NCBI GenBank assembly: GCA_019694475.1
Contig: JAIBBX010000007.1
Location: 9,225-73,224, forward strand
Reading direction: 5' to 3'
Origin: Parachlamydiales bacterium
GTDB lineage: Bacteria > Chlamydiota > Chlamydiia > Chlamydiales > SM23-39
Length of the DNA: 64,000 nucleotides
Of this stretch, positions 1,273 through 42,666 are shown one piece after another; position 1 is the stretch's first letter; each line of letters opens with the position of its first letter. Under the pieces are notes generated by a model. That model was given only the letters and a program-made list of their open reading frames with translations, was not told where the DNA came from and searched no databases. Both the position numbers and the translations under genes were made by a program.

Positions 1273-2113
1273 CGTCCCAGTGGTGGACTCCGAAAGATTC
1301 GGGTTCAATCCACTCTTCTCTTCCCTCATCTCTACGATGAGGGGAGGGAATTGGATAGAAGTAAGTGTATGGAAAGGCGATGTTTTTAAACCCTTTTTGG
1401 TGCCTCTCTTTGAAAAATGCTTTCCTCAAACAACCGGGCCCCGAAACTGACATCACTTCATCAGGGGTTGTGCCTGGATTTCTTTTGGAAATTTCCTTTA
1501 AGCAGTACCTGAGAATGGGATGATCTGGAACAGAGGCAATGAGGGCATTGCCCATCGCAGGGGCCTGATCTTCATGGAAAGCAGCCTCTAACCCTGCATA
1601 AAAATCGCAAGTGGAGTGGATTGGATCAAAGCTCTTGAGACACTCAAAATCGGTGTCTACATAGAGCCCCCCATAATGAAGAAGGATATCGTAGCGAAGG
1701 ATGTCAGCTTTTTCTCCCACGCTGATCGCCCGTTCGAAGCGGGCCCGATCGGTGAAGGGGAAATCGGCGAGATCGGCATCTGTCCAGAGGCGGTATTCCC
1801 AGTCTGGGTTCTTCTCCTTCCAAGTATTTTGAAGACCTTTGTATTTTTCTGGAAACGGACCGCCAATCCAGATTTGGTGGATGATCTTCGGAATCTGGCC
1901 CTTCCCCTTTTTGGCCATCCCTTTTTCATAGAGATTTTTTAGCCATTTCCATCTGCGCCCTTGCTCATTTGAGTAGTAGTTAACGAAAGAAGAGCTCGCT
2001 TTACTCATGCTCGAATCAAACGAGATCCACTCAGAAGGGGCCCCCTTCTTGAAAACTGTGAAGTATAGGGAAATCGCGAGAATCAAAGCGAAAGGGACAA
2101 TCGATCTTTTCAT
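1256..2113 (-). CDS. DXD-motif glycosyltransferase (GT32 / PF04488-like) with an N-terminal membrane anchor or signal
   Basis: It has IPKIIHQIWIGGPFPEKY and GGLYVDTDFECL (DXD). The N-terminus is hydrophobic (VPFALILAISLYFTVF). Its 3' end overlaps the hemY 3' end by 17 nt in convergent orientation. Confidence 0.7.
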   Translation of the reverse strand: MKRSIVPFALILAISLYFTVFKKGAPSEWISFDSSMSKASSSFVNYYSNEQGRRWKWLKNLYEKGMAKKGKGQIPKIIHQIWIGGPFPEKYKGLQNTWKEKNPDWEYRLWTDADLADFPFTDRARFERAISVGEKADILRYDILLHYGGLYVDTDFECLKSFDPIHSTCDFYAGLEAAFHEDQAPAMGNALIASVPDHPILRYCLKEISKRNPGTTPDEVMSVSGPGCLRKAFFKERHQKGFKNIAFPYTYFYPIPSPHRRDEGREEWIEPESFGVHHWDVIWVK

Positions 2114-2195
2114 AAAGAGGAACTATACTCGTTCCAGTTGAATATTCTCAATTTTTGGCGCTTTGACGCTGGTCAAAATTGAGAAGATTCCTTTC

Positions 2196-3860
2196 TTAAT
2201 AGGAAGCGATGAGGCCGAGGTGGAATTTGCCGAAGCTAGTCCCTACGATGCTGTCTTTGTGAAGTTTGATCCCATAGTCAGCTCTGAAATTAAGATAACT
2301 TCCAAGTTCGTATCTAATCCCAGGGCCTATTCCCATGAGATACTCATCTTTTTTATCATTGGAAAGGGACGGATAGTTCCAGCCTCTTCCATAATCGAAG
2401 AAAATCAGAGCGGTGAAGCGTCCTCTCAACGAAGATTGTCTCCAAAGGCAGTGAGAGCCGCTCCAGCGCATTTCGACGTTTGAAATAAATGCGTTGTCCG
2501 CATTAAAGATCCTCTCGTCGTAGCCGCGAACTGTATCGTACCCGCCGATCGGCATCTGTTCACTCGGGAGGAGGGCGCCGCTCGCGCCTTGAAAGCGAAG
2601 GACGGGATTAAAAGAGAAGCCGCGTCCGAATTGAACTTCATCCGAGGCCATTAGACGGGCGTAGATATATTGGTTTATCGCTTTGTTGCGAAGGTTGTTG
2701 AAATCATTGTTGTTTCCTCTACCGAAAAGTTCACCTGGCGAGCCATACACATTGATTAAGCAAGATATCTTGTGTTTTTCATCTTGATAAGCGAGATCTG
2801 TCCCAACGACTAATTGGAAAAGATTAACGCTTTTATACACAATCGGAACAGAGTTTTCGCTAATGTATTCTAGGTTGTTGTTCATGTATTTATAATCCCA
2901 TCCGAAAATCATCTCGGTGAGCTGTGCGATCCAATTCTTACCCCATGGAAGGTGATAGCGGAGGGAGGCTTGTCCGGTAAAGCCGTCGTTTTTCAGATGG
3001 CCTGTTGGGGGCATGACTTCGCTGTTGAGAGAAGAGAGATCGGGATGAACAAAAGAGAATCCTCCGAAAAGAGTTAGCGTGTGATGGATCGGCAGCGGGA
3101 TGGAGTAGTTAAATGTATGGGCCTGGAACTGCCCGTAGTCGGATGATGTGGTGAATTGATACGAGAGGACATGGTCCCATCCAAAAACATTGCCCCAATT
3201 CACTCCGGCAAACCAGCGGGCTTGCCCTGTGAAGTCGTTGCCGGTGTTATCGCCGCCTGTATAGAATCTCCATGTGAGCCTATCGCGTGTAAGGAGAAGA
3301 ATATCTGTGGTGTTTTGTTCTTTCCCTGGAGCAAACGTTGCGTTTGTGATGCGGAACGGATTGCGGTTCATAAACGCAAGATCGGAGAGGAGGCGGTTTG
3401 TGTCGATTTGATCGCCCGGGCAAAGTTTGATATACCGCCTTAGTTGGCCGTCTCGAAAATGGCAGTTCCCTTGAAAGAGGATTTCTCCAAGGGAGGCTTC
3501 TACGACAACCATTTGGACGATCCCATTTTCTACTTCTTGTTCAGGAATTTCTACAGAAACGACAGGACGGTGATGCATCTTATAGTGGAGGAGGATCTTT
3601 TCTTTAATCCCTGAAAGAATTTGAGGTGAAATCTCTTTGCCAAAATATTCATTCTCGAGAATGGCCTCTAATTTGAATGGGGCTCCCGGCAAATCTACTC
3701 CGACAAGAATGATCCCTTTCTTTTCTTCATCGAGCGGAAGGGCCAGATCGTTTTCATTTTTGCAAAGAACAACCCCTCGGATTGTATTATTTTGTTTAGT
3801 TTCGACTCCAAAGCAAGCTGCAGCAGCAAGTGAGAGGAGGATGAGGAGATATCGGTTCAT
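2196..3860 (-). CDS. Two-partner-secretion outer-membrane transporter (TpsB, ShlB/FhaC/HecB family), copy 2
   Basis: 554 aa with signal peptide MNRYLLILLSLAAAACFG. It has a POTRA-like segment (VVVEASLGEILFQGN) and the barrel motif IGGYDTVRGYDE, and ends in an aromatic residue (LIASY). The ATG overlaps the stop of the upstream TpsA (ATGA at 3857-3860). Confidence 0.85.
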   Translation of the reverse strand: MNRYLLILLSLAAAACFGVETKQNNTIRGVVLCKNENDLALPLDEEKKGIILVGVDLPGAPFKLEAILENEYFGKEISPQILSGIKEKILLHYKMHHRPVVSVEIPEQEVENGIVQMVVVEASLGEILFQGNCHFRDGQLRRYIKLCPGDQIDTNRLLSDLAFMNRNPFRITNATFAPGKEQNTTDILLLTRDRLTWRFYTGGDNTGNDFTGQARWFAGVNWGNVFGWDHVLSYQFTTSSDYGQFQAHTFNYSIPLPIHHTLTLFGGFSFVHPDLSSLNSEVMPPTGHLKNDGFTGQASLRYHLPWGKNWIAQLTEMIFGWDYKYMNNNLEYISENSVPIVYKSVNLFQLVVGTDLAYQDEKHKISCLINVYGSPGELFGRGNNNDFNNLRNKAINQYIYARLMASDEVQFGRGFSFNPVLRFQGASGALLPSEQMPIGGYDTVRGYDERIFNADNAFISNVEMRWSGSHCLWRQSSLRGRFTALIFFDYGRGWNYPSLSNDKKDEYLMGIGPGIRYELGSYLNFRADYGIKLHKDSIVGTSFGKFHLGLIASY

Positions 3861-6295
3861 AAAATCTCCTTCATTATGCCGTTTTGTTCTCGAGGATATG
3901 GACGCAAAGTCTCATATTCCCACTGTTGGGGTTCGTCAAAGATCCAGAATTCGCGGCCGATGAAGCCAGGATAGTCGTAATCAAATAGCCTTTGTTGGAA
4001 TTCAAACATCGCTAAATCAAAGCTCGTAAGTAAAGAAGATGGAAAAGAAAATCCCTTATAGAAAATGGTGTAGGGGACTCCTTGGAATGAGCTAGGGAAA
4101 TAGATGCCCCAATATTCCTGCGTCGTGTTGACAAACTCCTGACCAGGGGTGAATTGGACTCCTTGCAGGTGTCCGAGGATACTGTTATTTCCCTGCGAGG
4201 CGGTGAAGATTCTCAAAGGTTGATTGGCAACAACATTAGTGAAGACCGAGGCTTGAGGCCCGATATAAAGGGAGCCATTTCCTATATGAGGCGGGGCTGG
4301 GTTTGCATTGTCGACGATGAGGCAGAGAGGAACTGAAGCTGTGAAGATAGTCGCATTTTCATTCAGAATAATATCCTGGCCCGCCATAACGTCAATGCTT
4401 CCAAGTATCCCCGAATGGACGATCCGGCCGTTGCTGTTGATCGTGATTGTCCCATTTGCTTCTATGAGCAGCTCTCCGTTTGTTGTTGCTAGGGTTGCCG
4501 TTGCTGTGGGAGCTCCCCCCGTGAGGGTAATATGATTCCCATTTATGTAAGTGAGATCAGAGCTTCCTGCGATCCTAGCTTGGCTGATCGGTGAAGCGGT
4601 AAGCGAGATATTGCCCCGCGCAGTAATCGATGAGTTTTCCAGACAGGTGATTGACGCTTCCGATGGTGTCGTCGGAGAAAAGCCTCCTTGGAGAGTGATA
4701 TTTTGATTAAACTCGGCTGTTAAATTGCCTCCAACCGTAATCGAAGCGTATCCGCTGTCTCCTAAGCTTCCTACTTGATTCAAATTCTTGCCTTGTAATA
4801 CTGCATTTTCAAGGGTTTGGATTTGGGCGTAGGCTCCTGTGACAGGGGTCAGCTGGGAACCGATTAGAGAAATATCTCCGACAGCACTGATGACGATCGC
4901 TCCTGTAGAAGAGTAGATCTCAGAGGGAGAAGGGCCTACCTGAGTCCCTGCCAGGATCGTCAGATTTCTTCCTGCGTCGATTGAGATGGCCCCGCTTGCC
5001 GTCTGGATAGCGGATAGCGCTTGTGTTACGGGGTTTGTCAAAGCATCGGGAGATCCAATGATTGCATCCCTTCCGGAGAGAAGGGAGATGTTTCCTGAAC
5101 CCATGCACTGGACCTGCTCTTCAATGATGATGTCGCGATCGGCGCTAAGCGTTAGCGAACCGGCTGAATTCCAAACAACCTGAGCTTGGACGAAAATATC
5201 GCCGGACCCAAAATTTCCTGCTGTAGTTTGGACCGTTACATCGGCCATTCCCAAGGCATTTGCCAGTTCCGTTGCGTCAAGTTCCCCGGGTGCTGAGGCT
5301 GGGTTGTAAACAGGGGGAATAAAGGGAGGGGAGCTCGCCCCAAAAGTCCCAATTGTCACATCGCCTGGGTCAAGCAAAAGCTTTCCTTGCACTCCCATCG
5401 GGGCCGAAGCGTCGATTTTCCCTTTATAGTCGAGAGTCCCTTTGCTTGAGATCTCGATGAATCCGCCGTTGCCTTGAAGAGCGCCTCCTCTTGCTGAAAC
5501 CATTCCGTAGAATCCGGTCGCCTCTTCTGAGAGAATAAAAATGTTTCCTCCATCGCCTTCGATGGCAGCATCGGCGCGGATGATAGAGCCTGGAGCAATG
5601 GCTGTTTGCTTTGATTCGAAAGATCCGATGGACACGTCGCCGCCCTTGAAATCCCCAGAGACATCTATCTCGGCGTTTTGGAACGTGCGAATGTATTCTC
5701 CGGAAATTTCAACCGTTCCCGAAGGGGCTCGAAGGGCTCCATCGATTTCTAGGATCCCTTTTGGGGCCACGAGGAAAATCCGCCCCCCCTCTTCTTTCGT
5801 CCCGAGGGCGTCAATTTTCCCTTTGTGTTGGATGGCAAGAGCAAAGGGGTTGATATTGGATGCTCCTTCCAAGGGCAAGATTGATATAGAGGAAAGCCCC
5901 CCCTCTTTTTTAAGGAGAGATTCAGGAGCTATATCGGCTGCAAAGGCCATGAAATTTGCCGTTTGTACAGTGCCATTTTCTCCTACAACGATCCCATTTG
6001 GGTTGATGAGAAAAACAGATCCATTGGCTTCGAGGCGTCCCAAAATTGCGCTTGGATTTCCGCTGGTTACTTTGTTGATCGCAACCGATTGGGCGTTCGG
6101 CTGCAGAAAGCGGGTGATTTCATCGAACCCGATTGAGAAATCGTCCCAAAGGATAATCGCTTCATCGGAAGTGCGTATCTCAAGCGAATTGAGGTCTAAC
6201 TTGGAAAATTCGGCTTCTCCATGTACAACTGCCGGCCCGCTTGGATTTCCTATAAGAGAGAAGGGAAAAAGAAGTGTAAGGATGATCCGTCTCAT
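3857..6295 (-). CDS. TpsA-type exoprotein (filamentous-haemagglutinin-like), 812 aa
   Basis: It has a signal peptide and a TPS/haemagglutination-activity domain (FLQPNAQSVAINKV...VFLINPNGIVVG), followed by GNGGFIEISS...GKLLLDPGDVTIG. The body is G/T/S/A-rich and looks beta-helical. The ATG overlaps the stop of the giant TpsA (ATGA at 6292-6295). Confidence 0.85.
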   Translation of the reverse strand: MRRIILTLLFPFSLIGNPSGPAVVHGEAEFSKLDLNSLEIRTSDEAIILWDDFSIGFDEITRFLQPNAQSVAINKVTSGNPSAILGRLEANGSVFLINPNGIVVGENGTVQTANFMAFAADIAPESLLKKEGGLSSISILPLEGASNINPFALAIQHKGKIDALGTKEEGGRIFLVAPKGILEIDGALRAPSGTVEISGEYIRTFQNAEIDVSGDFKGGDVSIGSFESKQTAIAPGSIIRADAAIEGDGGNIFILSEEATGFYGMVSARGGALQGNGGFIEISSKGTLDYKGKIDASAPMGVQGKLLLDPGDVTIGTFGASSPPFIPPVYNPASAPGELDATELANALGMADVTVQTTAGNFGSGDIFVQAQVVWNSAGSLTLSADRDIIIEEQVQCMGSGNISLLSGRDAIIGSPDALTNPVTQALSAIQTASGAISIDAGRNLTILAGTQVGPSPSEIYSSTGAIVISAVGDISLIGSQLTPVTGAYAQIQTLENAVLQGKNLNQVGSLGDSGYASITVGGNLTAEFNQNITLQGGFSPTTPSEASITCLENSSITARGNISLTASPISQARIAGSSDLTYINGNHITLTGGAPTATATLATTNGELLIEANGTITINSNGRIVHSGILGSIDVMAGQDIILNENATIFTASVPLCLIVDNANPAPPHIGNGSLYIGPQASVFTNVVANQPLRIFTASQGNNSILGHLQGVQFTPGQEFVNTTQEYWGIYFPSSFQGVPYTIFYKGFSFPSSLLTSFDLAMFEFQQRLFDYDYPGFIGREFWIFDEPQQWEYETLRPYPREQNGIMKEIL

Positions 6296-9200
6296 CTTCG
6301 AAAGCCCCCTTTTTTGTTTGGGATCCAGTAGAGAAGAGAGGGGCGTCGATCAGCGATCAAATCGTCAGCCCGGTCTTCGAGGAAGTAAACGTAATCGGCC
6401 AGCGTATACACCGGAGCATAGATCGATGGAACGAAGAAATAGGTATTTGGAATCAACTCGATGATCTCCTTAGGCGTGGGGGGAGTCGGCGCTGGGGGAG
6501 TAAAGCAAGATGTGATCTCAATGCCGTTAAGGGTGATAATGCAGGGGGGATTGGTGGGAATTTCATGGATTGTCCCATCGCCTGTTGAGCCGATGAAGTC
6601 CGCTCTTGAAGGGAATGGGCCGTTGGCTCCCGCAAAGATTTGGCCAAGCGCACTGACGGAGATTTCGTTCCCCAATACTCCGACATTTCCGTTCAGACCG
6701 TTGAAGCTTCCATCTCCTGTCAGAGAGATCAAATGGGGACCCATTGGATTGTTTTTAATCGTGGTATTCGAGACGAAATCAACCCCATGGGCAAGGATTG
6801 CATTAGTAAAGGTAATCTGCTCTCCATCTGCCGTGACCTGACCGATCTCTCCTGCCGCCAGTCCCACTTTCCCGATTGTGATTGTTCCAGAGCCTGTCGA
6901 GACGCTGAGATTTTCAATGCTCGTGCCGTAGACAGTGGGCAAGATGAAATCGAGGTTGTTGATCAGAATTGTAAAATCAGACCCGTTTGTGAGCTGGATA
7001 ACGCCCCCTAAGTTAAATAGGTTGCTATTCAGGAATGTCGTAATGACCGTGGGAAATCCGCCGCTCACATTCAAGTTCCCCGGAGCTGTATAGATTTGAG
7101 CGTCTGCAGTGTAGAGGGTCCCTGTCAAGTTGATATTGGAAGTTGAATTCGCGGCAACGGTCGCAGCTCCAGAGAGAGCTCCGCCAATATTAAAAAGGAA
7201 GACTGTACTTCCGTTGACGATTAAATTGCCCAGGGGCACGTTGCTTCCTACTGTGCCGTTGAGAGAGGCAGTTCCCGTACCGGCTTGGACAGTGAGATCT
7301 CTTCCCGCAACATCTCCATCGATTGTCCCATTGAATACGATATTGCCAGCGCCTAGGCCGCTTGTGACAGTGACGAGAGGGACTGTGTCGCGGATTACAT
7401 CGGAATTGATCGTGATGTCGCTGCCGATCGTCGTGATATTGGCTGAGAGAAGAAGAGTGCTTCCATAAGTAACGGTTCCGTTACTGAGGACGAAAGCGTT
7501 TTGATCGATGAATCCTCCATGGACATTAAGAGAGCCCAGGGCGGACATACCGCCTAGCGGGGCGAGAAAGACGACGTCGGGCAAAAGGGCGGTTCCCGTA
7601 TCTCCCCCTGTTACAGAGAAGGGAAAATTATTGTCGACAGTCGATGCAGCGCCAAAGAGTACTCTCCCCGCACCCGTCATGGCTCCGTTTGTCACATCGA
7701 TTGCGGAAGCTGCCGTCAGAGAAATGGGTCCCGAAAAGGAGACGTTTTGGTTACGGGTTGTGATATTGGCTCCGAGCTGCGTTCCGCTCATGGTCGTTTG
7801 AAGAAATCCTCCGTCAGCAAAGACATTCGCCCCCGAAGGAATTGTCAGCGTGCCGCTGTGGTTGACGGTGAAGGGGCCATTCGACCCCAGAGTCGTTGTA
7901 ACGGGCGCTGCAAATGAGAAGTTGACGCCGGTAAGATTAATCCCGCCGAGGGCATCGGTGTCGACATTGCTGGTGAAAGTCGCAGAGCCTGTTCCAGTTT
8001 GTGTAATCGTTGCAGCCCGGACAAATGGAGCGGTGACAAGCGATGCGGTGTTGATTACAAGATTTCCGATCCTTGTCGTTCCTCCGATATTGCCGCCGAA
8101 CGAGATCATCCCTGTGTCAGTGGTGAGAGTCAGGTTGCCTCCTCCGTCGATTGTGCTCGAGAAAGTAATGCCGGCTGCTCCTGGCGTTGTCTGGGTCGTT
8201 AAAACGGTAGCGCCGGATAAGGTCACAGCTCTTAAAAAGCTAATCGTATCGTTCGTTGTAGCAATGCTGCCAGCAAGCGTCACAGGGCCCGCTCCGTTTT
8301 GAGTAAAGGGTCCGTCAAGAGTCATCGTAGAGGCAAGATTAATCGTCAGTGTGCCGCTGTTTGTTACAGTAACAGGGCCTGCCGCGGTCGTATTCACCGG
8401 CGCTGAGAAAGTAACGTTCGTTCCTGTAATAGCAATCCCCGAAACGGTGTTGGTATCGAGAGCTCCGTTGAAGGTCGTCGTTCCTGTTCCTGCTGCTTGC
8501 GTGATCGATGCGGCGGTAATCGCGGCGGTTGTAACATCTGCCGCACTGTTGATTGTCAAAACGCCCAATCGGGTCGGAGTTCCTGCAGCCCCGGTTAAGG
8601 TAACATTTCCAAGTCCGGCGGTAAGCGAGAGATCTTGGCCGCCCGTGATCGTGCTGGAAAACAAAATGTTTCCTCCGCCCGAGTTCAATGCGATCGGAGA
8701 GACGGCGGGTGGGATAAGCGAAACAGCTCCTCCGAAGGAGAGATTCGCGTTTGCAGTCGTGACGTTGGCTCCGAGGAAAACAGGCCCTATCGTCTGAGTG
8801 AAGGCTCCTGCTGCGTTGATGGGAGCCGTCGTATTGATGGTCAGCGACCCGCTATTTGCGATCGTCACAACACCCGCCGCTGTCGTCGTAGCGGCGCCGT
8901 TCAAGACGAAGTTCGTTCCAGCGAGATTAATTCCCGCTGCGGTATTCGTATCCAAAGCGCCGCCGAATGTGGTGGTCCCGGAGCCAGTAGTTTGGGTGAT
9001 CGATCCAGCTGTGATAGCTGATGTTGTGACGTTGTTCGCGTTCCCGATCAGGAAGGTTCCGACACGCGTGCCACCCCCTACGATGCCGCTTAACGTGATA
9101 TCGCCTGTTCCAGAAGACAGGGTGAGATTTTCTGCGTTGGCGACTGTTCCATTGATTGTATTTTGGAAAATGATATTGCCGGCGCCCGCTCCCGTACTGA

Positions 9201-12200
9201 AAGCAGCGGATCCAGTCAAAGTGACGGCCCTTAAAAAGGTGATGTCGTCGTTTGTCGTTGTGATGTCGCCTGCTGTGCTTACCAGTCCCGCTCCATTTTG
9301 AGTGAATGCCCCATCGAGGGTCATATCTGCCGCCGCAGCGATCGAGAGGAGGCCGCTGTTTGTAATGGTGACAGGCCCTGCACTCGTCGTCGTCACTGTG
9401 TTATTGAAGGTGAATGCGCCGCCGGTTAGGCTAACCCCTCCAGCTGCATTCGTGTCGACAGTTCCCGTAAAAGTCGCCGAACCCGTTCCGTTTTGGGTAA
9501 TGGTTGCAGCTCGTACTTGGGGAGCCGTGACGGTCGACGCCGTGTTGATGACGAGGTTTCCGATCCGCGTAGTTCCTCCGATATTGCCACCAAACGAGAT
9601 CATCCCTGTATCGGTTGTGAGAGTCAGGTCTCCTGCGCCGTCGATTACATTCGAGAAGGTAATGCCCGCCGCACCGGGAGTCGTTTGAGTCGTCAAAACG
9701 GTGGAGCCGGATAATGTTACGGCTCTCAAAATGCTGATCGCATCGTTTGTTGTAGAAATGCTGCCAGCGAGCGTCACAGGGCCCGCTCCGTTTTGAGTAA
9801 AGGGTCCGTCAAGAGTCATCGTAGAGGCAAGATTGATTGTTAAAGTGCCACTGTTTGTGACGGTGACCGGGCCTCCTGCTGTCGTGTTGACCGGTGCGGA
9901 GAATGTGACGTTAGTTCCGATAACAGAAATCCCCGGCGCCGTATTGGTGTCAATCGCACCGCTGAAAGTAGTGGTAGCGGAGCCGGAAAGTTGCGTGATC
10001 GAGGCGGCCGTTGTTTGTCCTATAAGAATAGTGGCTCCATTCGTAATAGTGAGAACTCCCAGCCTTGTAACGAAGCCAACGGGTCCAAAAAGGGAAATAT
10101 TGCCGGTTCCTGCTGTGAGAGTTAAGTCGTATCCAACTCCTCCTCTAATGTTGCTTGAGAAGGTGATACTGCCAGCTCCGGCCCCAGTGTTGATGGTAAC
10201 CGGCGCAGTCAAAGTAGTAGTCCTTAAGACGCTCACGTTGTCGTTTGTAGTGGTGATATTGGCCCCGAGAAACACGCCTGCCAAACCATTCTGATTGAAC
10301 GGACCATCTAAGGTTATGGGAGCGCTAGAGGGAATTGTAAGAGTTCCGCTGTTTGTGATCGTCATGGGGCCGCCGGCTGCTGTCACAACAGGGCTGTTGA
10401 TAGTGATCACTGTTCCTGTGAGAGAGATCCCTCCGACAAGGGAGGTATCGAGGGAATTGCCGACCCCGCCGAAGGTCGAGGTGCCGGTGCCGGTTGTCTG
10501 AGTGATTGTATTGGCGCGGATGCCGTTGGTTGTGACATCAAATGCACTGCTGATCGTAAATGTTCCAAGCCGATTGGTGGCGCCAGCAGTACTGCTCACG
10601 ATGATATTTCCTGTCCCAGCTGTCAGGGTTAGGTTCCTTCCTGCGGCGTTGCCGTCTATCAGACCGGTAGCTGGAGCGTTCGGTAAAAAGGAAATATTTC
10701 CCGCTCCGGCACCTGTAGAGAGGGTTACAGTAGCGGCTTGAAGGCTCACATCGCCATTGAAGGTGATATTACTATTGGTCGTTGTGATGCTGGCTCCGGC
10801 AAGCTGAATCCCAGTGTTAGCCGTCGGAGATGTGTACGTCAGCGCACCTGTAATTGCTGCTGTAGAGTTCTGTCTTACGACTGTTCCTGTTGCCGAAAGA
10901 GAGCCAAGGGCCTGAGTATTGCCAATCGCCCCGGTAAATAGAATGGTTCCCGTCCCGGATACTACGCTTAAGTTCCGCGTATTGGCCGCGCTGTCGGCGT
11001 TGAGTGTGGTAGAAACTGTGACACTTGCTCCCGCACCCGAGAAAGTCGTATCGAGAACGGCGTTCGTCGTCGCGGAGCCTCCTGTAAAATTATCGATCAC
11101 GAGCGCGGCCGGTATCAAAATGGGAGTGCTGCTTGTATAAATACCCGCGGCCAGCCTGACAGAGCCACCTGATATGGAAATTGCGTCTGTATACACATCG
11201 CCACGGATGAGGCTTGATCCGGTCGTCGTCAGGTTTACATTTGCGAATTCCCCGCCGCCCATCGAACCAACCCGACCGAACTCGATGGTTCCCGCGCCTG
11301 TGGTGGCTAAACTCAAAGTATGCCCCATTCCAGTTCCCCGGATCGGGCTGAAGAGGATACTAAAGGCTCCCGAAAAATTTGTGAAAAATACGTTCGTTCC
11401 TGTCACGGAAAAATTCTTTCCTGCCGCCAGTAGAACCGATCCGGTGCCGCCGTTTGTGACCGTATCGAAAATGATTTGCCCCCCAGTGCTGCTAACAGTC
11501 GAAAGGGCTCCTGGAGGATTGATGTTGATATTGAACGCACCCCCTGAAGTGGCATTCCTGTAGGTTGCCGCCCCTGTACAGCGAGTGAAATTGCCGTTCA
11601 AGTTGATTGTATCGCGGGCTGTAACGGTTATTGCGCTGGCGCCAGCGGCCGCCATCGTTCCGATATCAGCAAAAGAGATCGTAGCTCCTGTGATGGTTAA
11701 ATTCCCCAGCCGGTTGACCGCCCCGATCGCCCCCGGGACTGTGACCGTTCCCGTCCCGCCTGTGATTGTGAGAGCCTTGCCGATCACATCTCCGTCGATC
11801 GTATTGCCAAAAGTAATATCTCCCGCCCCGGCTCCTGATGAAATGCTAATCGGGGTGGAGGCGCGCGATTGGACGTCTCCCGTCAGCGTAATAGCGGTGT
11901 TCGCCGTGATGATGTTATCAAAAAGGCGGATCCCCGTTGCTGGAGTCGTAGCGGTATAGCTGATGGGCCCGGTAATCGATACGAGCGCTCTTTGGTCGAC
12001 GATAGCGCCGCTCGCCGTGAAGCTCGTCAGTCCCGAGGCGGCATTGTTGAGGAGTACGGTTCCCGTCCCCGCCGTGAGAGTCAGGTTGCGCGTTCCGGAG
12101 AAAACACCAATGGTGCCAAGGGTGATGTCGGCCCCTGCTCCCGAATTGACTGTGCTCACGAAGCTGTTTGTTGTGGCGGGGCCTCCGGTGTAGGTTGCAA

Positions 12201-14505
12201 GTGTGACGCCGTTCGGGATCGAAATCGGAGTGCTGTCGGTATACAGGCTTCCTCCGAGTTGGATGGCGACTGGCGAACTGATAGTGATTGCACTCGAATA
12301 AATATCTCCCCTCAGAAAGATGTTTCCGGAGGCCGTTAATGACGCTGTTGCGAATTCCATCCCTCCCATCGATCCAATATTGCCCAATTCGATAATGCCG
12401 GCCCCTGTCGAAGCTGTGAGAGTTAGGTTGTGGTTCATCCCGGTGCCGCGGATGGGAGAAAAAAGGGTGCCTACTCCTGAAAAATTGGTGAAATAGATGC
12501 CTGCGGCTGTGACGGAGAGATCCTTGCCTAAAGAGAGGAGGACTGATCCAGTCCCGCCTCCAGTTACGGTATCGAATATAATATTATTGGTTGCATTAAA
12601 CACAGCCGTCGCAAGAGAAGGGTTGATTCCTATATTGAAGGCTCCCCCTGTGTTAGCGGATCGAAACGTGATGTTGGTAGCGCGATAATAATCGCCATTT
12701 AGGGTTATGGTATTACTTGCAACGATACTAACTGTCGATGCACCAAGATCGGTCGCTGTTCCGATGTTTGAAAGAGTAACGTTCGCTCCTGAGATCGTCA
12801 GAGGCCCGGTTGTCATCGCGCTATTTTCATAAGCCCCTGTGATAGTTACAGAACCTGTGCCCGCGGAAAAAGTTATTCCCGAAATGATGGATGGTAAAAC
12901 TTTCCCCGCAAAAAGAATATCTCCAGCGCCAGCTCCTGTCGTGAGGGTGACCCCCGCGTTCAGGGCGACATCGTTTAAGGCCCCGCCAGAAAAAGCAATA
13001 TCGCCCCCGTTAGTAGTGATAGCAGATTGCAATGTAGTTCCCGCCCCGGCTTGGAATGTGATCCCGATCCCTGCCCCTGCGATGCTGATGGCATTGACTA
13101 CCGTGATTGTGCTTGATGCGCATAGGACAACATTGGCGCCAGAAGCATTGATGGTGGCTGGAGCGATGGAGCAGGCAGAAGCCATATCGGTGCAGTCGGC
13201 TGCCTGGACGAGAGTGCAAAGACCTCCTATCGCAACTGTAATCGTATTAGGATCTAGCAGCCAGCTTCCTGCTTTACCCTTGGGCGCCATCGCATTTACA
13301 TGCCCTTCGGAAATAGCTAGTGATTGACGGCCCGACGTTTCGACAAAGCCTCCATTGCCGTTTTGCGAACCGCCTTGGGCAAAAATTTTCCCGTCGAAGC
13401 GCGTTATCCCATCAGCCCAAACGATGACTTTTCCCCCATCGCCGCTTGTATAGGCGTTTGATAAAATGGTTGAACCATTATCGATGGAATTGGTTATCGC
13501 AGTACGAGTAGAGCCTTCCCCTTTGTAATCGCCTCCTATGAGAACTGTCCCGCCGCCGAGATCGCCCGACGCATCGATTAGAGCGCCTTCTAGAAAGATA
13601 GAATCGCCCAATACTTTAACAGTTCCTCCAGACTCATGAAGAGATGCGGCGTCGAGAGTTCCAGCTACTCGGACAGAGCCGTCCCCATCGAGAACAATGT
13701 TCCTTGCTTGAATCAAACTCTCACTTAAAATCTCGATCTTCCCATCAATCTCGACAATCTCAGAGCCAAATTCAATTCCATCAGTATTGACAACGCTCTC
13801 GATCACCTGGCTTGCCATCTTAAGAGAAAGGAAAACTTCACTCGCCTCAATGGCCCCAGCAGCTTCAATCATCCCTTTTTTTAGGGCGCCGTCCAACGAA
13901 AAGCCAATCAGGCCATCTCCAGAAAAATCGAGAACGGCTTCTTCTGCCGATCCGAGGATTACTTTACCAAATGATGCTGTTATGAGACCGTCGTTTCGGA
14001 TCTTGGGAGCGAGAAGGACTACCGAACCGTCGGAGGCTGAGATTTCTCCTAATACATCGATTCGGTTTTCTTCCGAACCAGGAACTAGCCGGAAGAGGTA
14101 TTTGTCATCCAAGAAATCTTGCGGATCAATGTGAAGAACCGAGGCGATTAAAGAGCCTGTGTCAACTTTTGCATTCGGACCGAAATAGATCCCATTCGGA
14201 TTGACGAGGAATACTTTTCCATTTGAAGAAAGCTTTCCGAAAATCTCCGATGGCTTTTCTCCCCGAACCCGATTCAAGACCGATGCCTGAGTAGAAGGTT
14301 GGATGAATTGGACTCTTTCCTCATGTCCGATGTCGAACGATTTGTAGTCGAGGATCGCTTTGTCGGAAGCGATCACTTGGAGCGCTTGATTGTCAGGCTG
14401 GGAAATTTGTGCCGAGCCTGAATGGACCGAAATTTCTTGGGGCAAAGCAGCCAGCATCCCAGGAATCATCAGGAGGAGGGGGGAAAGAATGTTGCGCTGA
14501 CCCAT
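6292..14505 (-). CDS. Giant TpsA-type exoprotein (filamentous-haemagglutinin-like), 2737 aa
   Basis: One uninterrupted 8.2-kb ORF with signal peptide MGQRNILSPLLLMIPGMLAALP. The TPS domain reads FIQPSTQASVLNRVRG...VFLVNPNGIYFG...GNGGFVETSG...GSWLLDPNTITV. After that comes a long T/G/A/S-rich repeat region. It starts 12 nt downstream of TpsB copy 1. Confidence 0.9.
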   Translation of the reverse strand: MGQRNILSPLLLMIPGMLAALPQEISVHSGSAQISQPDNQALQVIASDKAILDYKSFDIGHEERVQFIQPSTQASVLNRVRGEKPSEIFGKLSSNGKVFLVNPNGIYFGPNAKVDTGSLIASVLHIDPQDFLDDKYLFRLVPGSEENRIDVLGEISASDGSVVLLAPKIRNDGLITASFGKVILGSAEEAVLDFSGDGLIGFSLDGALKKGMIEAAGAIEASEVFLSLKMASQVIESVVNTDGIEFGSEIVEIDGKIEILSESLIQARNIVLDGDGSVRVAGTLDAASLHESGGTVKVLGDSIFLEGALIDASGDLGGGTVLIGGDYKGEGSTRTAITNSIDNGSTILSNAYTSGDGGKVIVWADGITRFDGKIFAQGGSQNGNGGFVETSGRQSLAISEGHVNAMAPKGKAGSWLLDPNTITVAIGGLCTLVQAADCTDMASACSIAPATINASGANVVLCASSTITVVNAISIAGAGIGITFQAGAGTTLQSAITTNGGDIAFSGGALNDVALNAGVTLTTGAGAGDILFAGKVLPSIISGITFSAGTGSVTITGAYENSAMTTGPLTISGANVTLSNIGTATDLGASTVSIVASNTITLNGDYYRATNITFRSANTGGAFNIGINPSLATAVFNATNNIIFDTVTGGGTGSVLLSLGKDLSVTAAGIYFTNFSGVGTLFSPIRGTGMNHNLTLTASTGAGIIELGNIGSMGGMEFATASLTASGNIFLRGDIYSSAITISSPVAIQLGGSLYTDSTPISIPNGVTLATYTGGPATTNSFVSTVNSGAGADITLGTIGVFSGTRNLTLTAGTGTVLLNNAASGLTSFTASGAIVDQRALVSITGPISYTATTPATGIRLFDNIITANTAITLTGDVQSRASTPISISSGAGAGDITFGNTIDGDVIGKALTITGGTGTVTVPGAIGAVNRLGNLTITGATISFADIGTMAAAGASAITVTARDTINLNGNFTRCTGAATYRNATSGGAFNININPPGALSTVSSTGGQIIFDTVTNGGTGSVLLAAGKNFSVTGTNVFFTNFSGAFSILFSPIRGTGMGHTLSLATTGAGTIEFGRVGSMGGGEFANVNLTTTGSSLIRGDVYTDAISISGGSVRLAAGIYTSSTPILIPAALVIDNFTGGSATTNAVLDTTFSGAGASVTVSTTLNADSAANTRNLSVVSGTGTILFTGAIGNTQALGSLSATGTVVRQNSTAAITGALTYTSPTANTGIQLAGASITTTNSNITFNGDVSLQAATVTLSTGAGAGNISFLPNAPATGLIDGNAAGRNLTLTAGTGNIIVSSTAGATNRLGTFTISSAFDVTTNGIRANTITQTTGTGTSTFGGVGNSLDTSLVGGISLTGTVITINSPVVTAAGGPMTITNSGTLTIPSSAPITLDGPFNQNGLAGVFLGANITTTNDNVSVLRTTTLTAPVTINTGAGAGSITFSSNIRGGVGYDLTLTAGTGNISLFGPVGFVTRLGVLTITNGATILIGQTTAASITQLSGSATTTFSGAIDTNTAPGISVIGTNVTFSAPVNTTAGGPVTVTNSGTLTINLASTMTLDGPFTQNGAGPVTLAGSISTTNDAISILRAVTLSGSTVLTTQTTPGAAGITFSNVIDGAGDLTLTTDTGMISFGGNIGGTTRIGNLVINTASTVTAPQVRAATITQNGTGSATFTGTVDTNAAGGVSLTGGAFTFNNTVTTTSAGPVTITNSGLLSIAAAADMTLDGAFTQNGAGLVSTAGDITTTNDDITFLRAVTLTGSAAFSTGAGAGNIIFQNTINGTVANAENLTLSSGTGDITLSGIVGGGTRVGTFLIGNANNVTTSAITAGSITQTTGSGTTTFGGALDTNTAAGINLAGTNFVLNGAATTTAAGVVTIANSGSLTINTTAPINAAGAFTQTIGPVFLGANVTTANANLSFGGAVSLIPPAVSPIALNSGGGNILFSSTITGGQDLSLTAGLGNVTLTGAAGTPTRLGVLTINSAADVTTAAITAASITQAAGTGTTTFNGALDTNTVSGIAITGTNVTFSAPVNTTAAGPVTVTNSGTLTINLASTMTLDGPFTQNGAGPVTLAGSIATTNDTISFLRAVTLSGATVLTTQTTPGAAGITFSSTIDGGGNLTLTTDTGMISFGGNIGGTTRIGNLVINTASLVTAPFVRAATITQTGTGSATFTSNVDTDALGGINLTGVNFSFAAPVTTTLGSNGPFTVNHSGTLTIPSGANVFADGGFLQTTMSGTQLGANITTRNQNVSFSGPISLTAASAIDVTNGAMTGAGRVLFGAASTVDNNFPFSVTGGDTGTALLPDVVFLAPLGGMSALGSLNVHGGFIDQNAFVLSNGTVTYGSTLLLSANITTIGSDITINSDVIRDTVPLVTVTSGLGAGNIVFNGTIDGDVAGRDLTVQAGTGTASLNGTVGSNVPLGNLIVNGSTVFLFNIGGALSGAATVAANSTSNINLTGTLYTADAQIYTAPGNLNVSGGFPTVITTFLNSNLFNLGGVIQLTNGSDFTILINNLDFILPTVYGTSIENLSVSTGSGTITIGKVGLAAGEIGQVTADGEQITFTNAILAHGVDFVSNTTIKNNPMGPHLISLTGDGSFNGLNGNVGVLGNEISVSALGQIFAGANGPFPSRADFIGSTGDGTIHEIPTNPPCIITLNGIEITSCFTPPAPTPPTPKEIIELIPNTYFFVPSIYAPVYTLADYVYFLEDRADDLIADRRPSLLYWIPNKKGGFRR
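7500..11000 (-). repeat. Tandem in-frame repeats of about 166 aa inside the giant TpsA (at least 6 full units plus degenerate flanking units)
   Basis: The marker codons for I-T-Q sit at 7999-8007, 8497-8505, 8992-9000, 9493-9501, 9991-9999 and 10498-10506, giving spacings of 498, 495, 501, 498 and 507 nt. Units three apart are the most similar (offset exactly 1494 nt). A 64-nt stretch is identical between 8277-8340 and 9771-9834. Confidence 0.9.
10700..12900 (-). repeat. Direct duplication of a unit of about 370 aa inside the giant TpsA
   Basis: The segments ...FDTVTGGGTGSVLLSLGKDLSV...FSPIRGTGMNHNLTL... and ...FDTVTNGGTGSVLLAAGKNFSV...FSPIRGTGMGHTLSL... align throughout. The Met codons of the RGTGM motif lie at 12436-12438 and 11326-11328, an offset of 1110 nt. 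Outer boundaries are approximate. Confidence 0.8.
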
Positions 14506-14517
14506 ATCTAATTTACC

Positions 14518-16260
14518 TTATAAAAACCCTACGCTTACTTTGAAATAATAAAACGGGTTAGATGTTTTTTCTTTGGTAGTGATCGGGAATCCCACATCGA
14601 GAGAAAAATTCACGTTCCAAGGGCCAAAGACCCGTATGCCAGGCCCAGCGCCTGTCAGGTATATCGTTCTCGCCTGATCTTCTCCGCCTCCGTTCAGGAA
14701 GACGCCGCCCGTGTCGACAAATGCAAGAAGTTGAACGAATTCCTTCCATGACTTTTTCATTCCAGGAACCTTCTGGTCGACAAGCCCCGGGATCGGCGTT
14801 CTCAGCTCAAGGTTTGCAAAATAGCCATTATCTCCGAGAGCCGCTGCAAGTTCATAGCCGCGAACGGAATCAAAGCCCCCGATATAGATCTGCTCGGCAA
14901 GAGGGAGTTTATAAAACGTTCCTTGGCCTGAAAAATTGAAGAGGAAGAAGCTGTTTTTCGGAAGTTTTTGAATTCGTTTATAATCGAGATTGAAGATGGT
15001 AAATCTACCTCCTGCGCCTTCTCGGCTGCAGCGCGGATCGACCGCTTTCGAGCCTCCGAGAAAATGGGGGACCCCCACATAGAGAGTTGCGGATCCGATG
15101 TTGCGGCCCCAAAAGCGGTCGTTCCCATCTAAATCGATTCCTGCACCAAAAATTCTTAAACGGTCGACAGAAGCCGTTAGATCCAGAGCGAAGTTGAAGA
15201 GGTTTTTGTAATCAAACGTCGCATATACGTTGCAGTCCAGTTGTTTTTTTCTGACGGCGGCATGGGTCAGTTTTAATTCGGCGACATGAGAGTTGCCCTT
15301 AAGTCCCAAATCTCTTAAAGTTCCCACATTGAAATAAGCGAAAAGATACGAAATCTCGCCTCTAGTTCCTCTTGCGTTCAAAGGGAAATTGTAAACCAGG
15401 TCTGTGAAAGTAAGATCCGCTGGAGGAAATCCGAGCACTTCGGCCACACTAAACTTATCACCATAAACCAAACAATTGCCCCAATCAAAACGAGCCCCAG
15501 TCCGGCTGTCTGTTGTGATGAAAGATCCGTAGTTATTGTAGTCCCAATAGAGATGGATCGGCCGGGAATCTTTCACCTTCAGAATGATGTCCGCGCAGCC
15601 AAATAATGAGCTTTTCTTCAATAGCAGAGCTGCGTTCAAATCCATATTTTCGTTCAAAAGCAAAAGGGCCCTTAAAAGAGTTTCATAATGGACCGGTTTA
15701 TTCTGAAAATCGGTGAAATATCTTCGGACGAACGAATCGCTGTAAAACCGGTTTGATTCAATGCAGATCTCCCCGAGACATCCTTCGAGAATGGCGACCT
15801 TCAGCGTCTTATTTTCAATACTCTGAGCAGGAACATAGGCCCGCGCTAAGATGTAGCCTTGCGCTGCATATTTTGCTTTGATTGCCAAAAGAAGCGTTTC
15901 AATCTCGTGCATGGACATTTCACAGGGGACGTGACAAGACGCAAGCTCTTCAAGCGAGCAGTCAGAGAAGATCGTGTTTCCGGAAAAGGAGATCTTTTCT
16001 ATATAGACTTTCTTCCCCTTCGGTAATGAGAGAGTTTCGCTCGGAACTTCTACATCGAGAAGAGGGATTTCACGGTCAGGGGAAATTTCTTGAGCTCCCT
16101 CATATTGTTTTTCCAATTCCCTCTCGATGATCCCAGCCGAGGAAGATGGAGGGCCGACAAATACTGAGTAGAGGGAAAAGGGAAGGAGCGCGAAAATAAA
16201 TAAAGGAACGAATCTTAAAATTCGTATTTTCAGGAGAATGTTCGTCCAATATTTAATCAA
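14518..16260 (-). CDS. Two-partner-secretion outer-membrane transporter (TpsB, ShlB/FhaC/HecB family), copy 1
   Basis: 580 aa with an N-terminal hydrophobic signal. It has a POTRA-like segment (IEKISFSGNTIFS...YAAQGYILARAYVPAQSIENKTLKVAILEGCLGEI), the barrel motif IGGFDSVRGYE, and C-terminal KVSVGFL. Confidence 0.85.
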   Translation of the reverse strand: MIKYWTNILLKIRILRFVPLFIFALLPFSLYSVFVGPPSSSAGIIERELEKQYEGAQEISPDREIPLLDVEVPSETLSLPKGKKVYIEKISFSGNTIFSDCSLEELASCHVPCEMSMHEIETLLLAIKAKYAAQGYILARAYVPAQSIENKTLKVAILEGCLGEICIESNRFYSDSFVRRYFTDFQNKPVHYETLLRALLLLNENMDLNAALLLKKSSLFGCADIILKVKDSRPIHLYWDYNNYGSFITTDSRTGARFDWGNCLVYGDKFSVAEVLGFPPADLTFTDLVYNFPLNARGTRGEISYLFAYFNVGTLRDLGLKGNSHVAELKLTHAAVRKKQLDCNVYATFDYKNLFNFALDLTASVDRLRIFGAGIDLDGNDRFWGRNIGSATLYVGVPHFLGGSKAVDPRCSREGAGGRFTIFNLDYKRIQKLPKNSFFLFNFSGQGTFYKLPLAEQIYIGGFDSVRGYELAAALGDNGYFANLELRTPIPGLVDQKVPGMKKSWKEFVQLLAFVDTGGVFLNGGGEDQARTIYLTGAGPGIRVFGPWNVNFSLDVGFPITTKEKTSNPFYYFKVSVGFL

Positions 16261-16355
16261 AGTGAAAGCCCCAAAACAAGAATATACACAAAGAAAAAAT
16301 TTGTAGGTAGTGGATTTTCTGATTATTTTGAGGTGATTTTCGATTCAAATGCCAA

Positions 16356-16381
16356 GGGTAATATCAGGGTTGATATTACCC
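16356..16381 (-). terminator. Hairpin just downstream of the prolyl hydroxylase stop; possible weak terminator or attenuator ahead of TpsB copy 1
   Basis: The 11-bp stem is gggtaatatca / tgatattaccc with loop gggt. No clear U-tract follows on the minus strand. Confidence 0.3.
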
Positions 16382-16397
16382 CCGGCATTAACAGCTT

Positions 16398-17057
16398 CTA
16401 ACGGTATTTTTCCATCCGGATCCACTTATTCACAATCCACTTTTCCCCTTCTACGACAGGCGCTCCGCCATGCAGCGACATCGGGTCAGGCTCCCCTTCT
16501 GGATGGCAGTTATAAAACAGAAGAGCATCTCTTTTCTTGGGAACCACTTTGACGCCCGCCTCTGGGAAAACAGTTTCTCCTCCTTTAGCCGGTGTATTTA
16601 GATACATAACTAGGCTCGCATATCTCTGCCCTCCTACAAGTGTGCACTCTACGCCGCCAGCGGTTGATGTATCGAAATAGTCGTAATGAGGCTTAAATTC
16701 GCCCCCTTTTTTATAATGAAGAACTTGGAGCGGCTCCCCTTGATCAATCGAAGTTTTGGTCAGACGGGCGATCCTCTTTTCAACCCGATGCAGAATCGGA
16801 TCTTCAAAGTTTAATAAGTAGGCTCCATCGCTCGTTCTTTGATCGACAACCAAGCCATCTGACTGGTCTCCTTCGGGATCTACTACTACAGCTCGTTCGA
16901 GATTAGGGGTTGCTTCCCGAATGAAATATTCGCACTCCTCGTCTGTTAGGAAGTTATGAATGAGCATGATTCTCGGAGATTTGCTTAAGGTTTCAACAGT
17001 ATAGTCGCCGAAGACAAGCGAAGAAAAAATCATGAAAATCGGAATGAAAGTTCTCAT
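16398..17057 (-). CDS. Prolyl 4-hydroxylase-like 2-oxoglutarate/Fe(II) dioxygenase with an N-terminal signal peptide
   Basis: The pattern is that of the P4H alpha-subunit catalytic domain: HYDYF (HxD), GGETVFP, and HGGAPVVEGEKWIVNKWIR. The N-terminus MRTFIPIFMIFSSLVFG looks like a signal peptide. Confidence 0.8.
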   Translation of the reverse strand: MRTFIPIFMIFSSLVFGDYTVETLSKSPRIMLIHNFLTDEECEYFIREATPNLERAVVVDPEGDQSDGLVVDQRTSDGAYLLNFEDPILHRVEKRIARLTKTSIDQGEPLQVLHYKKGGEFKPHYDYFDTSTAGGVECTLVGGQRYASLVMYLNTPAKGGETVFPEAGVKVVPKKRDALLFYNCHPEGEPDPMSLHGGAPVVEGEKWIVNKWIRMEKYR

Positions 17058-17326
17058 CGGGATAATCTCCTTTTTTGAGAGAAGTTTAATTCAAATTAAA
17101 CCGATTTTCCGATTCTTAACAACAATTTTCACCCCCTCCAGATTGCCGCGGGTTGATTAATTAAATTTTGTGTTTATGTTTAAGTAGCTTACGTAGAGCT
17201 TCTTACGTTTTAAAATAAAGTCTACTAATTGTGGCGTAATGGTAATTGTAGTAATATGAATACAGGCGAGTTATTTAAATGTGACATCTCCTGATAATTT
17301 AATAATGTAAAAGATTGGAGGTTGTT

Positions 17327-17839
17327 GTGAGTATTAATCCAATAAGAAGAGATCCTGTGGCCCACGTGCCTAGATCTAGCAAAGCGAAGGGGATTTCCCA
17401 AAGCGCAGCTACGGCTGCAAAAGTAGATCAAGTCGTACAGCTGCCTGTTGTGAAGCAAACGGGCTTAAGAGGTAGACAAGTTGCTCTTCTAAAGGATGCA
17501 ACCGATCTCTCCAAAAATATACGAAAGAACTGGGACATGCTAGCCCCCGAAGAGTTGGCAGAAAAGATCATCGATCTAGAGGATCGAGTCACCCTATTGA
17601 AAGGAGATTCTCCAGAAGTGGCTAAGGTGGTGAAGGAGGCTCGGACGCTCCATTTCCGATTTGTATATCCTGTGGCATTAGAGCTTGAGACATCGGGCAA
17701 GTCGATGCCCCCCTCTTTTGCTAAAACAGTTTATCACGCGGCTAAGCAGGTTTTTGATACGAATTCAGTGGCTCCATTCAAACAATTGAGCCCAGTGCAG
17801 CAACAAGAAGTAATCCGAATAGCAATGGGAGGTAAATGA
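17327..17839 (+). CDS. Hypothetical protein (about 170 aa)
   Basis: GGAGG at 17317-21 lies 5 nt before GTG at 17327; the ORF track begins at the in-frame TTG at 17315. I recognised no family. The stop overlaps the next ATG (ATGA). Confidence 0.5.
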   Translation: MSINPIRRDPVAHVPRSSKAKGISQSAATAAKVDQVVQLPVVKQTGLRGRQVALLKDATDLSKNIRKNWDMLAPEELAEKIIDLEDRVTLLKGDSPEVAKVVKEARTLHFRFVYPVALELETSGKSMPPSFAKTVYHAAKQVFDTNSVAPFKQLSPVQQQEVIRIAMGGK

Positions 17840-18117: not shown

Positions 18118-18142
18118 GGGAGTATTCCTAAAAGATTCTTCT

Positions 18143-25462: not shown

Positions 25463-25497
25463 GGCCAAGTATTTTACACTGAAAGGGATCTTTCTAG

Positions 25498-42179: not shown

Positions 42180-42222
42180 GAAGCATAAGATTTCCCGTTA
42201 AAATTTTTTCTGAGGGGGTCTT

Positions 42223-42663: not shown

Positions 42664-42666
42664 AAT

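Follow-up and report, generated by a model that had tools for sequence, protein, structure and literature searches.

In two-partner secretion (TPS, also called type Vb secretion), one transporter (TpsB) per cargo (TpsA) is the norm, as the first-pass annotation of the DNA studied here had assumed, with exceptions that include one TpsB serving two cargos, promiscuous TpsBs and accessory genes (PMC5422565). What, then, is the nature of a locus in which two transporters and two cargos stand directly beside one another, in the order B-A-A-B? Such a locus lies in a 64,000-nt stretch of the genome of a Parachlamydiales bacterium (assembly GCA_019694475.1, contig JAIBBX010000007.1, positions 9,225-73,224 of the forward strand), hereafter the window. 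Its genes are tpsB1, tpsA1, tpsA2 and tpsB2, with products B1, A1, A2 and B2. The locus is likely to represent two complete type Vb systems of different classes that have been joined in one four-gene cassette. The genome of the window is referred to as G000 and its sister genome as G010, while L058 and L059 are metagenome contigs from other samples.

The four co-directional open reading frames (ORFs) are tpsB1 (14518-16260, 580 aa), tpsA1 (6292-14505, 2737 aa), tpsA2 (3857-6295, 812 aa) and tpsB2 (2196-3860, 554 aa). They and all parts of the cassette located below are on the minus strand, and all four match TPS families. The gene order and coordinates of the first-pass annotation hold. The annotation had also proposed profile searches. 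These place ShlB (PF03865, Pfam cut-off 22.7 bits) in both transporters, at 80.1 bits in B1 and 76.7 bits in B2, and B1 additionally matches POTRA_2 (PF08479, 54.9 bits) and Omp85 (34 bits). The TPS secretion domain PF05860 is found in both cargos, at 100.9 bits in A1 when the N terminus is scanned alone (TIGR01901, 75.6 bits) and at 70.2 bits in A2. In A1 the domain spans residues 26-257 (13735-14430) with an NPNGI motif, and the NPNG motif can be read in the A1 and A2 translations as VNPNGIYFG and INPNGIVVG, respectively. The signal peptides of the two cargos were recognized by eye.

The junctions between these genes are very tight. The tpsB1 gene starts with TTG, the sole common start codon in its open frame, and its stop (TAA) is followed after 12 nt, the longest spacer within the block, by the ATG of tpsA1. 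Both remaining junctions are ATGA overlaps, as the first-pass annotation had reported: at 6292-6295 tpsA1 ends in ...CGA AGA TGA with the A2 ATG inside, and at 3857-3860 tpsA2 ends in ...ATT TTA TGA with the B2 ATG inside, the latter overlap being preceded by an AAGGAG Shine-Dalgarno motif 8 nt upstream. Strong hairpins are found only outside the block. One (16348-16389) follows the stop of the upstream prolyl-hydroxylase-like gene, in a 140-nt spacer that folds at -42.4 kcal/mol (z = -6.1, 0 of 200 shuffles folding as well) and contains a 19-bp perfect stem. The other (2140-2190) stands directly after the tpsB2 stop, where the 3' spacer folds at -24.1 kcal/mol (z = -4.1, again 0 of 200 shuffles). 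Judged by fold energy, both are likely terminators; the second would end the four-gene unit and the first likely insulates the cassette from upstream transcription. Because of the two overlaps, the 12-nt gap and the restriction of strong hairpins to the outside, the four genes probably form one transcription unit with translational coupling. The annotation's single coupled operon thus stands as far as its stop/start junctions are concerned, while its co-transcription is suggested by the overlaps and flanking hairpins. A misjoin in the assembly can be ruled out, because the B-A-A-B order is also present in the independently assembled G010 (contig C38) and an A1-tail/A2/B2 order is present in the two metagenome contigs.

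Do the two transporters belong together? Their loop-6 motifs, GGFDSVRGY in B1 and GGYDTVRGY in B2, both conform to the pattern (V/I)RG(Y/F), and V444, R445 and G446 are invariant across the B2-class alignment. B1 combines a signal peptide and POTRA domains with an Omp85-type barrel whose loop 6 carries VRGY, and the sequence matches of B1 in the PDB are the TpsB4 POTRA domain (2mhj) and CdiB (6wim). The AlphaFold2 model of B2 (pLDDT 81) has two POTRA-like modules and 16 barrel strands, and in Foldseek it matches FhaC (4ql0, 1e-23) and CdiB (6wim, TM 0.73-0.75) over its full length. The annotation had noted the shared GG(F/Y)D(S/T)VRGY motif yet held that the two genes are not recent duplicates, and both points are borne out, with 22-27% identity between B1 and B2 over partial alignments. 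In the TpsB phylogeny that it had called for, a maximum-likelihood tree of the 15 TpsBs of G000 with BamA as outgroup, B1 and a paralogue at C9:462025-463728 (63% identical) sit on a branch of 4.2 substitutions/site and are ~21-32% identical to the remaining TpsBs. The other 13, which make up B2's class, are 27-55% identical to B2. B1 and B2 are members of two deeply separated TpsB classes. About 85 chlamydial orthologues of B1 were found, at 40-63% identity.

The two classes may also differ at the N terminus. According to the review by Guérin et al. (PMC5422565), most TpsBs are predicted to have a plug helix (H1) and a linker of ~30 residues ahead of POTRA1. In B1, ~53 residues lie between the signal peptide and POTRA1, a segment compatible with an FhaC-type plug helix plus linker. 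In B2 there are ~10 such residues, and the sole N-terminal helix of the model is the signal peptide, at low confidence; a difference in plug helix and linker is thus suggested by sequence and one model. The B2 orthologues of G010 and the two metagenome contigs are 677-795 aa long, not 554 (G010:C38 ~40731-42764, L058:12502-14538, L059:3612-5999), and have a duplicated POTRA1-like N-terminal segment.

If the transporters belong to different classes, which of them serves which cargo? B1-class genes were surveyed in 103 genomes of the family and are present in 17, usually as one gene per genome, and in all 10 loci inspected for neighbours an A1-type TpsA follows directly. Where the contig is long enough, these A1-type proteins measure 3455 (G010), 5056 (G094), 6232 (G101), 6579 (G023) and 9950 aa (G011). 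Many of the B1-class matches are close to an end of a short contig, since most short-read assemblies break at giant repeat genes. In G011, G023, G094 and G101 the B1/A1 pair stands alone, with no A2/B2 following. A TPS-domain tree was built from nine TpsAs adjoining B1-class genes and 27 other TpsAs of G000; the nine form one clade with 100/99 support, apart from the 27, and A2 groups with the TpsAs linked to B2-class genes. A lone A2-like/B2-like pair is found after murA at G010:C72. Since B1/A1 and A2-like/B2-like pairs occur alone elsewhere, the locus can be understood as two self-sufficient TPS systems joined head to tail. On this comparison, B1/A1 is an old conserved pair and A2/B2 a member of the expanded second class. 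The pairing implied by the first-pass annotation, B1 with A1 and B2 with A2, is accordingly backed by the 10/10 linkage and the 100/99 clade, and it is the pairing that we infer. The giant single-ORF A1 loci are located at G011:C2 ~1149430-1179282, G023:C3 ~155561-175300, G101:C1 ~2021276-2039974 and G094:C32 ~49666-64836.

Is the joining of the two systems more than an accident of one chromosome? Relatives of the cassette were traced via A2 homologues; with B2 as query against the genome contigs, relatives at <=41% identity and no cassette were recovered. A second copy in G000, at C9:462025-468048, encodes B1' (567 aa), A2' (802 aa) and B2' (540 aa). G010:C38 holds a cassette with the same order as the window (B1 569 aa, A1 3455 aa, A2 843 aa, B2 677 aa), and L058 and L059 preserve an A1-tail/A2/B2 order in which the A1/A2 junction is an ATGA overlap or a 2-nt gap. 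The A2 proteins of G010, L058 and L059 are 82-85% identical among themselves. Three cassette lineages can be recognized, namely the window copy (C10), the second G000 copy (C9) and the G010 group (G010:C38, L058 and L059), and they are equidistant, with 62-63% identity for B1, 46-47% for A2 and 54-55% for B2. Flanking housekeeping proteins of G000 and G010 are 86-93% identical. This equidistance, together with the close similarity of the flanks, indicates that the cassettes are old paralogous lineages and not fast-evolving positional orthologues.

In the C9 copy, B1' and A2' are separated by what looks like a 293-nt "gap" but proves to be an in-frame ORF of 98 codons (C9:463728-464024). It encodes a signal peptide and the opening residues of a TPS domain, followed by the conserved A1-type tail, and it overlaps both neighbours: the B1' stop at its start (TGATG) and the A2' ATG at its end (ATGA). 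By its sequence this ORF is an internally collapsed A1. It was found only in G000, where the sole short complete match (P0304) is the C9 ORF itself. A conserved tail-only mini-ORF in other genomes was considered and rejected, as the other short matches look like fragments of longer genes.

The boundaries of the cassettes can be placed by comparison with the sister genome. By blastn, window positions 153-2127 align with G010:C121 3215-5178 at 82% nucleotide identity, and positions 16399-18132 align with G010:C121 6610-8289 at 84%. Between these flanks there is no homology; the window holds 14.27 kb (2128-16398, the four genes with a further 68 and 138 nt), which behaves as an insertion/deletion unit, and G010 holds 1.43 kb. 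The G010 cassette, together with a secreted 2-oxoglutarate (2OG) oxygenase gene, forms an 18.1-kb insert where the flanking genes in G000 are 153 nt apart (C9:197251/197404). A 9.8-kb segment of G000 that includes the C9 copy gives way to 1.4 kb in G010:C83. Each of the three cassettes thus has a chromosomal site of its own, at which the sister genome lacks it, and the four-gene block has been inherited and relocated as one unit.

These observations bear on the simplest alternative, which is that two independent TPS operons became neighbours by chance, each being used alone, and that their adjacency has no functional meaning. The genome would give ample opportunity for this: TPS genes make up 6% of G000, B-A and A-B orders and many orphan genes occur, each half is found alone in other genomes, and relatives differ in what occupies the slot between the flanking glycosyltransferase and hydroxylase. 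However, chance does not readily explain why the four-gene order and its tight junctions have been kept in three lineages that are only 46-63% identical, at three chromosomal sites where the insertion/deletion boundaries enclose all four genes. Nor is there intergenic room for a promoter before tpsA2 or tpsB2, and even the in-frame mini-ORF of the C9 copy preserves both overlaps. We regard chance adjacency as a rather unlikely account.

What, then, would the cassette export? Against the PDB, A1 matches EtpA (8vba, E = 4e-54, residues 6-682), as well as HMW1 (2odl) and HxuA (4rm6). Its Thr/Gly/Ala-rich passenger is built of repeats. Windowed self-BLAST reveals an array of six to seven repeats of ~166 aa at residues ~1237-2330 (7516-10797; motif spacing 165-169 aa), which includes a recent three-unit duplication at 84% identity, and a further pair of ~370-aa repeats occupies residues 500-1270. 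Because the passenger is repeat-built, the length of A1 orthologues varies widely. From the EtpA homology and the Gly/Thr/Ala-rich repeats, the passenger is predicted to be a long beta-helix. The last ~120 residues of A1 form a separate module (6295-6648) with a Cys pair 70-83 residues from the end (C2655/C2667, C-x11-C), a proline-rich stretch and an aromatic tail (YVYFLEDRADD...WIPNKKGG), and it can be regarded as a candidate periplasmic stopper or anchor. No Pfam match was obtained for this module. Among 91 representative clusters it is C-terminal wherever the matched protein is long, and the Cys pair is kept in seven of the eight full-length orthologues. In HMW1 and HxuA, a disulfide-bonded C-terminal domain stays in the periplasm and locks the cargo in the pore (PMC5422565). 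By analogy with these two proteins, the putative disulfide loop and the tail of A1 probably anchor the fibre to the cell.

The second cargo is shorter. The AlphaFold2 model of A2 (mean pLDDT 84) is a continuous beta-helix over residues ~20-750, and its top Foldseek matches are EtpA (8vbb, 1e-17), HxuA (4rt6) and HMW1 (2odl). Its C-terminal module, W..YFP...PYTIFYK (window 3860-4250), is common to most TpsAs of G000; in the model it completes the helix and continues into one alpha-helix and a disordered tail. In most of the 28 TpsAs of the genome this module is ~110-130 aa long, reads E.W..YYP...PFTIFYK.CL...LHPYNEFPGW...YYLRRR.LN..N.PK.WT and has no Pfam match; an example is seen at 34312-34700 in the window's third tpsA gene, A3 (34309-37164, 951 aa), which has no adjacent transporter. 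The tail of A1 differs from this common module.

Large TpsAs with variable C-terminal regions, in a locus where cdiBAI-like and bcpAIOB-like gene orders are both represented, could also suggest contact-dependent inhibition (CDI) or another form of toxin delivery, with a toxin at the C terminus of a TpsA. We consider this very improbable. The C-terminal 438 aa of A1 and 513 aa of A2 gave no Pfam match even at E up to 1, so that no pretoxin (VENN-type) or toxin domain is seen there. No small immunity-type gene follows either tpsA, the overlaps running straight into the next tps gene. Moreover, comparison of orthologues and paralogues shows conserved and not polymorphic C-terminal modules, and the TPS domains are nearest to the EtpA/HMW1/HxuA group of adhesins and binding proteins. 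Sequence and model together point to A1 and A2 as adhesin-like or binding fibres and not CDI toxins.

Taking the locus as two joined type Vb systems, a mechanism can be proposed. The outer-membrane transporter B1 would recognise the TPS domain of A1 and export it, and once outside, A1 would fold as a long beta-helical fibre made of repeats. Its predicted C-terminal disulfide loop and its aromatic tail would probably be retained in the periplasm or the pore, so keeping the fibre attached to the cell surface. B2 would export the short beta-helical A2. If the block is indeed a single transcription unit, the cell would produce the two fibres and the two pores at the same time. The fibres would most plausibly act as surface adhesins of the infectious stage.

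Several observations weigh against parts of this proposal. The pairing of transporters and cargos is drawn from co-occurrence and co-phylogeny, and TpsB promiscuity is known in other bacteria (PMC5422565). Adhesin function is read from the fold and the nearest relatives. The Cys pair is absent from the G094 orthologue of A1, and A2 has no such pair. A consensus scan of positions 1000-17600 returned 14 sites resembling promoters, where shuffled sequence gives 15.8, and 19 resembling terminators, where it gives 16.4; because it did no better than shuffles, it is uninformative and a promoter internal to tpsA1 may exist. Finally, B1' is intact beside the collapsed A1' in the C9 copy, a poor fit with the export of A1 as the only job of B1. 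It may be that B1' serves the A1 of the window copy in trans, that A1' collapsed recently, or that pores of the B1 class have some other function.

The last of these possibilities leads to a further alternative, in which the halves are interdependent: A2/B2 would be accessory to the display, anchoring or function of A1, or B1 would do more than export A1, for instance by acting on A2 or the tail-only mini-protein. The long-standing linkage of the four genes, their equal divergence among cassettes and the survival of B1' in the C9 copy, although A1' has been reduced to signal peptide and tail, are all in line with such dependence. Set against them are B1/A1 pairs without A2/B2 in at least four other genomes, the lone A2-like/B2-like pair at G010:C72 and the A2 TPS domain, which clusters with B2-class cargos and not with the A1 type; the mini-ORF, moreover, is confined to G000. 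On balance interdependence appears improbable, somewhat more so than chance adjacency. A bolder version can also be entertained, in which the cassette is a co-adapted dual-fibre surface organelle, A1/B1 and A2/B2 acting jointly as a composite mobile type Vb machine in environmental chlamydiae. Here, a long capture fibre may work with a short docking fibre, one unit may be needed for display of the other, or the B1 class may have a role beyond A1. This is speculative and we give it little weight, but if true it would explain the intact B1' and the 98-aa signal-peptide-plus-anchor-tail ORF of the C9 copy.

How do two joined type Vb systems compare with what is known? By sequence, the TPS domains of A1 and A2 are nearest to HMW1 and HxuA of H. 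influenzae and to EtpA of the EtpBAC system of enterotoxigenic E. coli, which are also the nearest to the A2 model by fold. The passengers here are beta-helical like those of HMW1, HxuA and EtpA, and the conserved Cys pair and tail at the end of A1 are reminiscent of the HMW1/HxuA anchor (PMC5422565). Unlike these systems, which have one transporter and one cargo each, the block here has two of both; A1 is far larger and built of 166-aa repeats, and A2 is without a Cys pair. The cytoplasmic HMW1C/EtpC-type glycosyltransferase of HMW1ABC and EtpBAC is also missing here, the adjoining glycosyltransferase being of the PF04488 (DXD) type and independent of TPS genes in G010.

Two adjoining TPS units, each with a large haemagglutinin-like TpsA and its own transporter gene, are also present in Pasteurella multocida as lspB/pfhB1 and lspB/pfhB2. 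We take PM0058 to be the second transporter gene of this lspB/pfhB pair (PM0056-PM0059). PM0057, PM0059 and a haemolysin-activator gene, 00056, are described for this organism (PMC3660278). The P. multocida arrangement is B-A-B-A with two similar units, whereas here the order is B-A-A-B, the TpsBs are of deeply different classes (22-27% identity), the junctions overlap and the block relocates as one cassette. Genomes with several TpsAs and more than one TpsB are also exemplified by Neisseria meningitidis (TpsB1/TpsB2, TpsA1-3) and Bordetella (FhaC-FhaB/FhaS), but there the genes are in separate loci or one transporter serves two cargos, and here two classes are fused in a coupled block. B-then-A and A-then-B orders both occur naturally, as in E. 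coli cdiBAI and Burkholderia bcpAIOB (PMC5422565). In comparison with these, the locus here combines the two orders, B-A first and then A-B, with no toxin tip and no immunity gene.

Among chlamydiae, our literature search on TPS and filamentous haemagglutinins found one mention and nothing on expansions or cassettes: Rhabdochlamydia helvetica has one TPS operon with weak similarity to the Haemophilus haem/haemopexin system, which that paper writes huxA/huxB (PMC6490308). That single operon is reported in passing, and no expansion, two classes or four-gene cassette are described there (PMC6490308).

The proteins of the cassette are ordinary members of known families, and since tandem TPS units are already known elsewhere, the locus varies a known theme and introduces no new principle. 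What is new is the fusion of two distant TPS classes in a B-A-A-B block, the persistence and relocation of this block as a unit, and the dedicated pairing of the B1 class with a giant A1. With an order kept through deep divergence and relocation, the cassette offers a natural system for the study of TpsB/TpsA specificity when two systems are made together, and a conserved class of transporter is dedicated to giant fibres that reach ~9,950 residues. Practical value is modest, the families being known and the adhesin function a prediction.

Within G000, the locus is not an exceptional single one. The assembly (2.29 Mb, 10 contigs) contains 15 TpsB and 28 TpsA genes that together occupy 136.6 kb, or 6.0% of it. 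Of the B2-class transporters, eight adjoin a TpsA, which precedes the transporter in six cases (A-B) and follows it in two (B-A); three TpsBs stand without a TpsA beside them, and 17 TpsAs without a transporter beside them. For these 17 orphan tpsA genes it is relevant that both specific and promiscuous transporters are known (PMC5422565). Other TPS sites in the genome include C1:148839-154030, C5:74701-80096, C8:182783-191048 and C9:405364-445063. Relatives carry between 0 and 28 TPS-domain genes each. Devotion of ~6% of a 2.3-Mb obligate intracellular genome to TPS points to a little-described surface biology of environmental chlamydiae.

The chlamydial context itself, which the first-pass annotation had guessed, is supported by the taxon names on the close B1 homologues (Chlamydiota, Parachlamydiales, Simkaniaceae, Rhabdochlamydiaceae). 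The annotation had further suggested that, if the genome is chlamydial, large TPS adhesins would be an alternative to the Pmp autotransporters of the pathogenic Chlamydiaceae, and had proposed a search for Pmp-type autotransporters in this genome. One part of this holds, as the Chlam_PMP repeat (PF02415, with GGA[ILV] and FxxN motifs) has no match anywhere in G000, and A1 and A2 have no autotransporter domain. The other part does not, because seven classical autotransporters with the PF03797 beta-domain are present (C6:245975-248791, C1:158818-161277, C8:561977-565327, C5:224827-227094, C1:140380-142809, C9:11012-13276 and C9:100514-103306; 754-1116 aa, with 0-2 GGA[ILV] motifs each). TPS is thus a large addition to, and not a replacement for, type Va proteins.

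The genes that flank the cassette in the window can be set aside. Upstream is a prolyl-hydroxylase-like 2OG-Fe(II) oxygenase with a signal peptide (PF13640, window 16398-17057), and downstream is the DXD glycosyltransferase (PF04488), which has an N-terminal hydrophobic segment. Both are conserved in G010 as neighbours, with a hemY-like gene also near, and because no TPS genes lie between them there, they are not parts of the system. A hydroxylase/glycosyltransferase "modification island" was rejected on the same ground. A second cassette, that of G010:C38, also has a 2OG-Fe(II) oxygenase gene beside tpsB1 (~25040-25999), of a different subfamily, and the recurrence is possibly a coincidence. 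Among relatives, the slot that the glycosyltransferase and the hydroxylase enclose is variable. In G010 it holds an unrelated AAA-ATPase-like gene of 445 aa (C121:5179-6609), and the corresponding region of G011 (C1 ~81890-83230) holds a 445-aa gene that, on comparison, is not the same one. At G010:C83, the site that corresponds to the C9 cassette segment of G000, there is a ~130-bp dispersed, palindromic, MITE-like (miniature inverted-repeat transposable element-like) repeat (4478-4611) that matches itself on both strands. Copies of this repeat in G000 are found at C8:406935-407077, C8:503816-503947, C5:294859-294990, C9:412579-412710, C9:84371-84503, C2:4421-4552 and C2:28678-28809.

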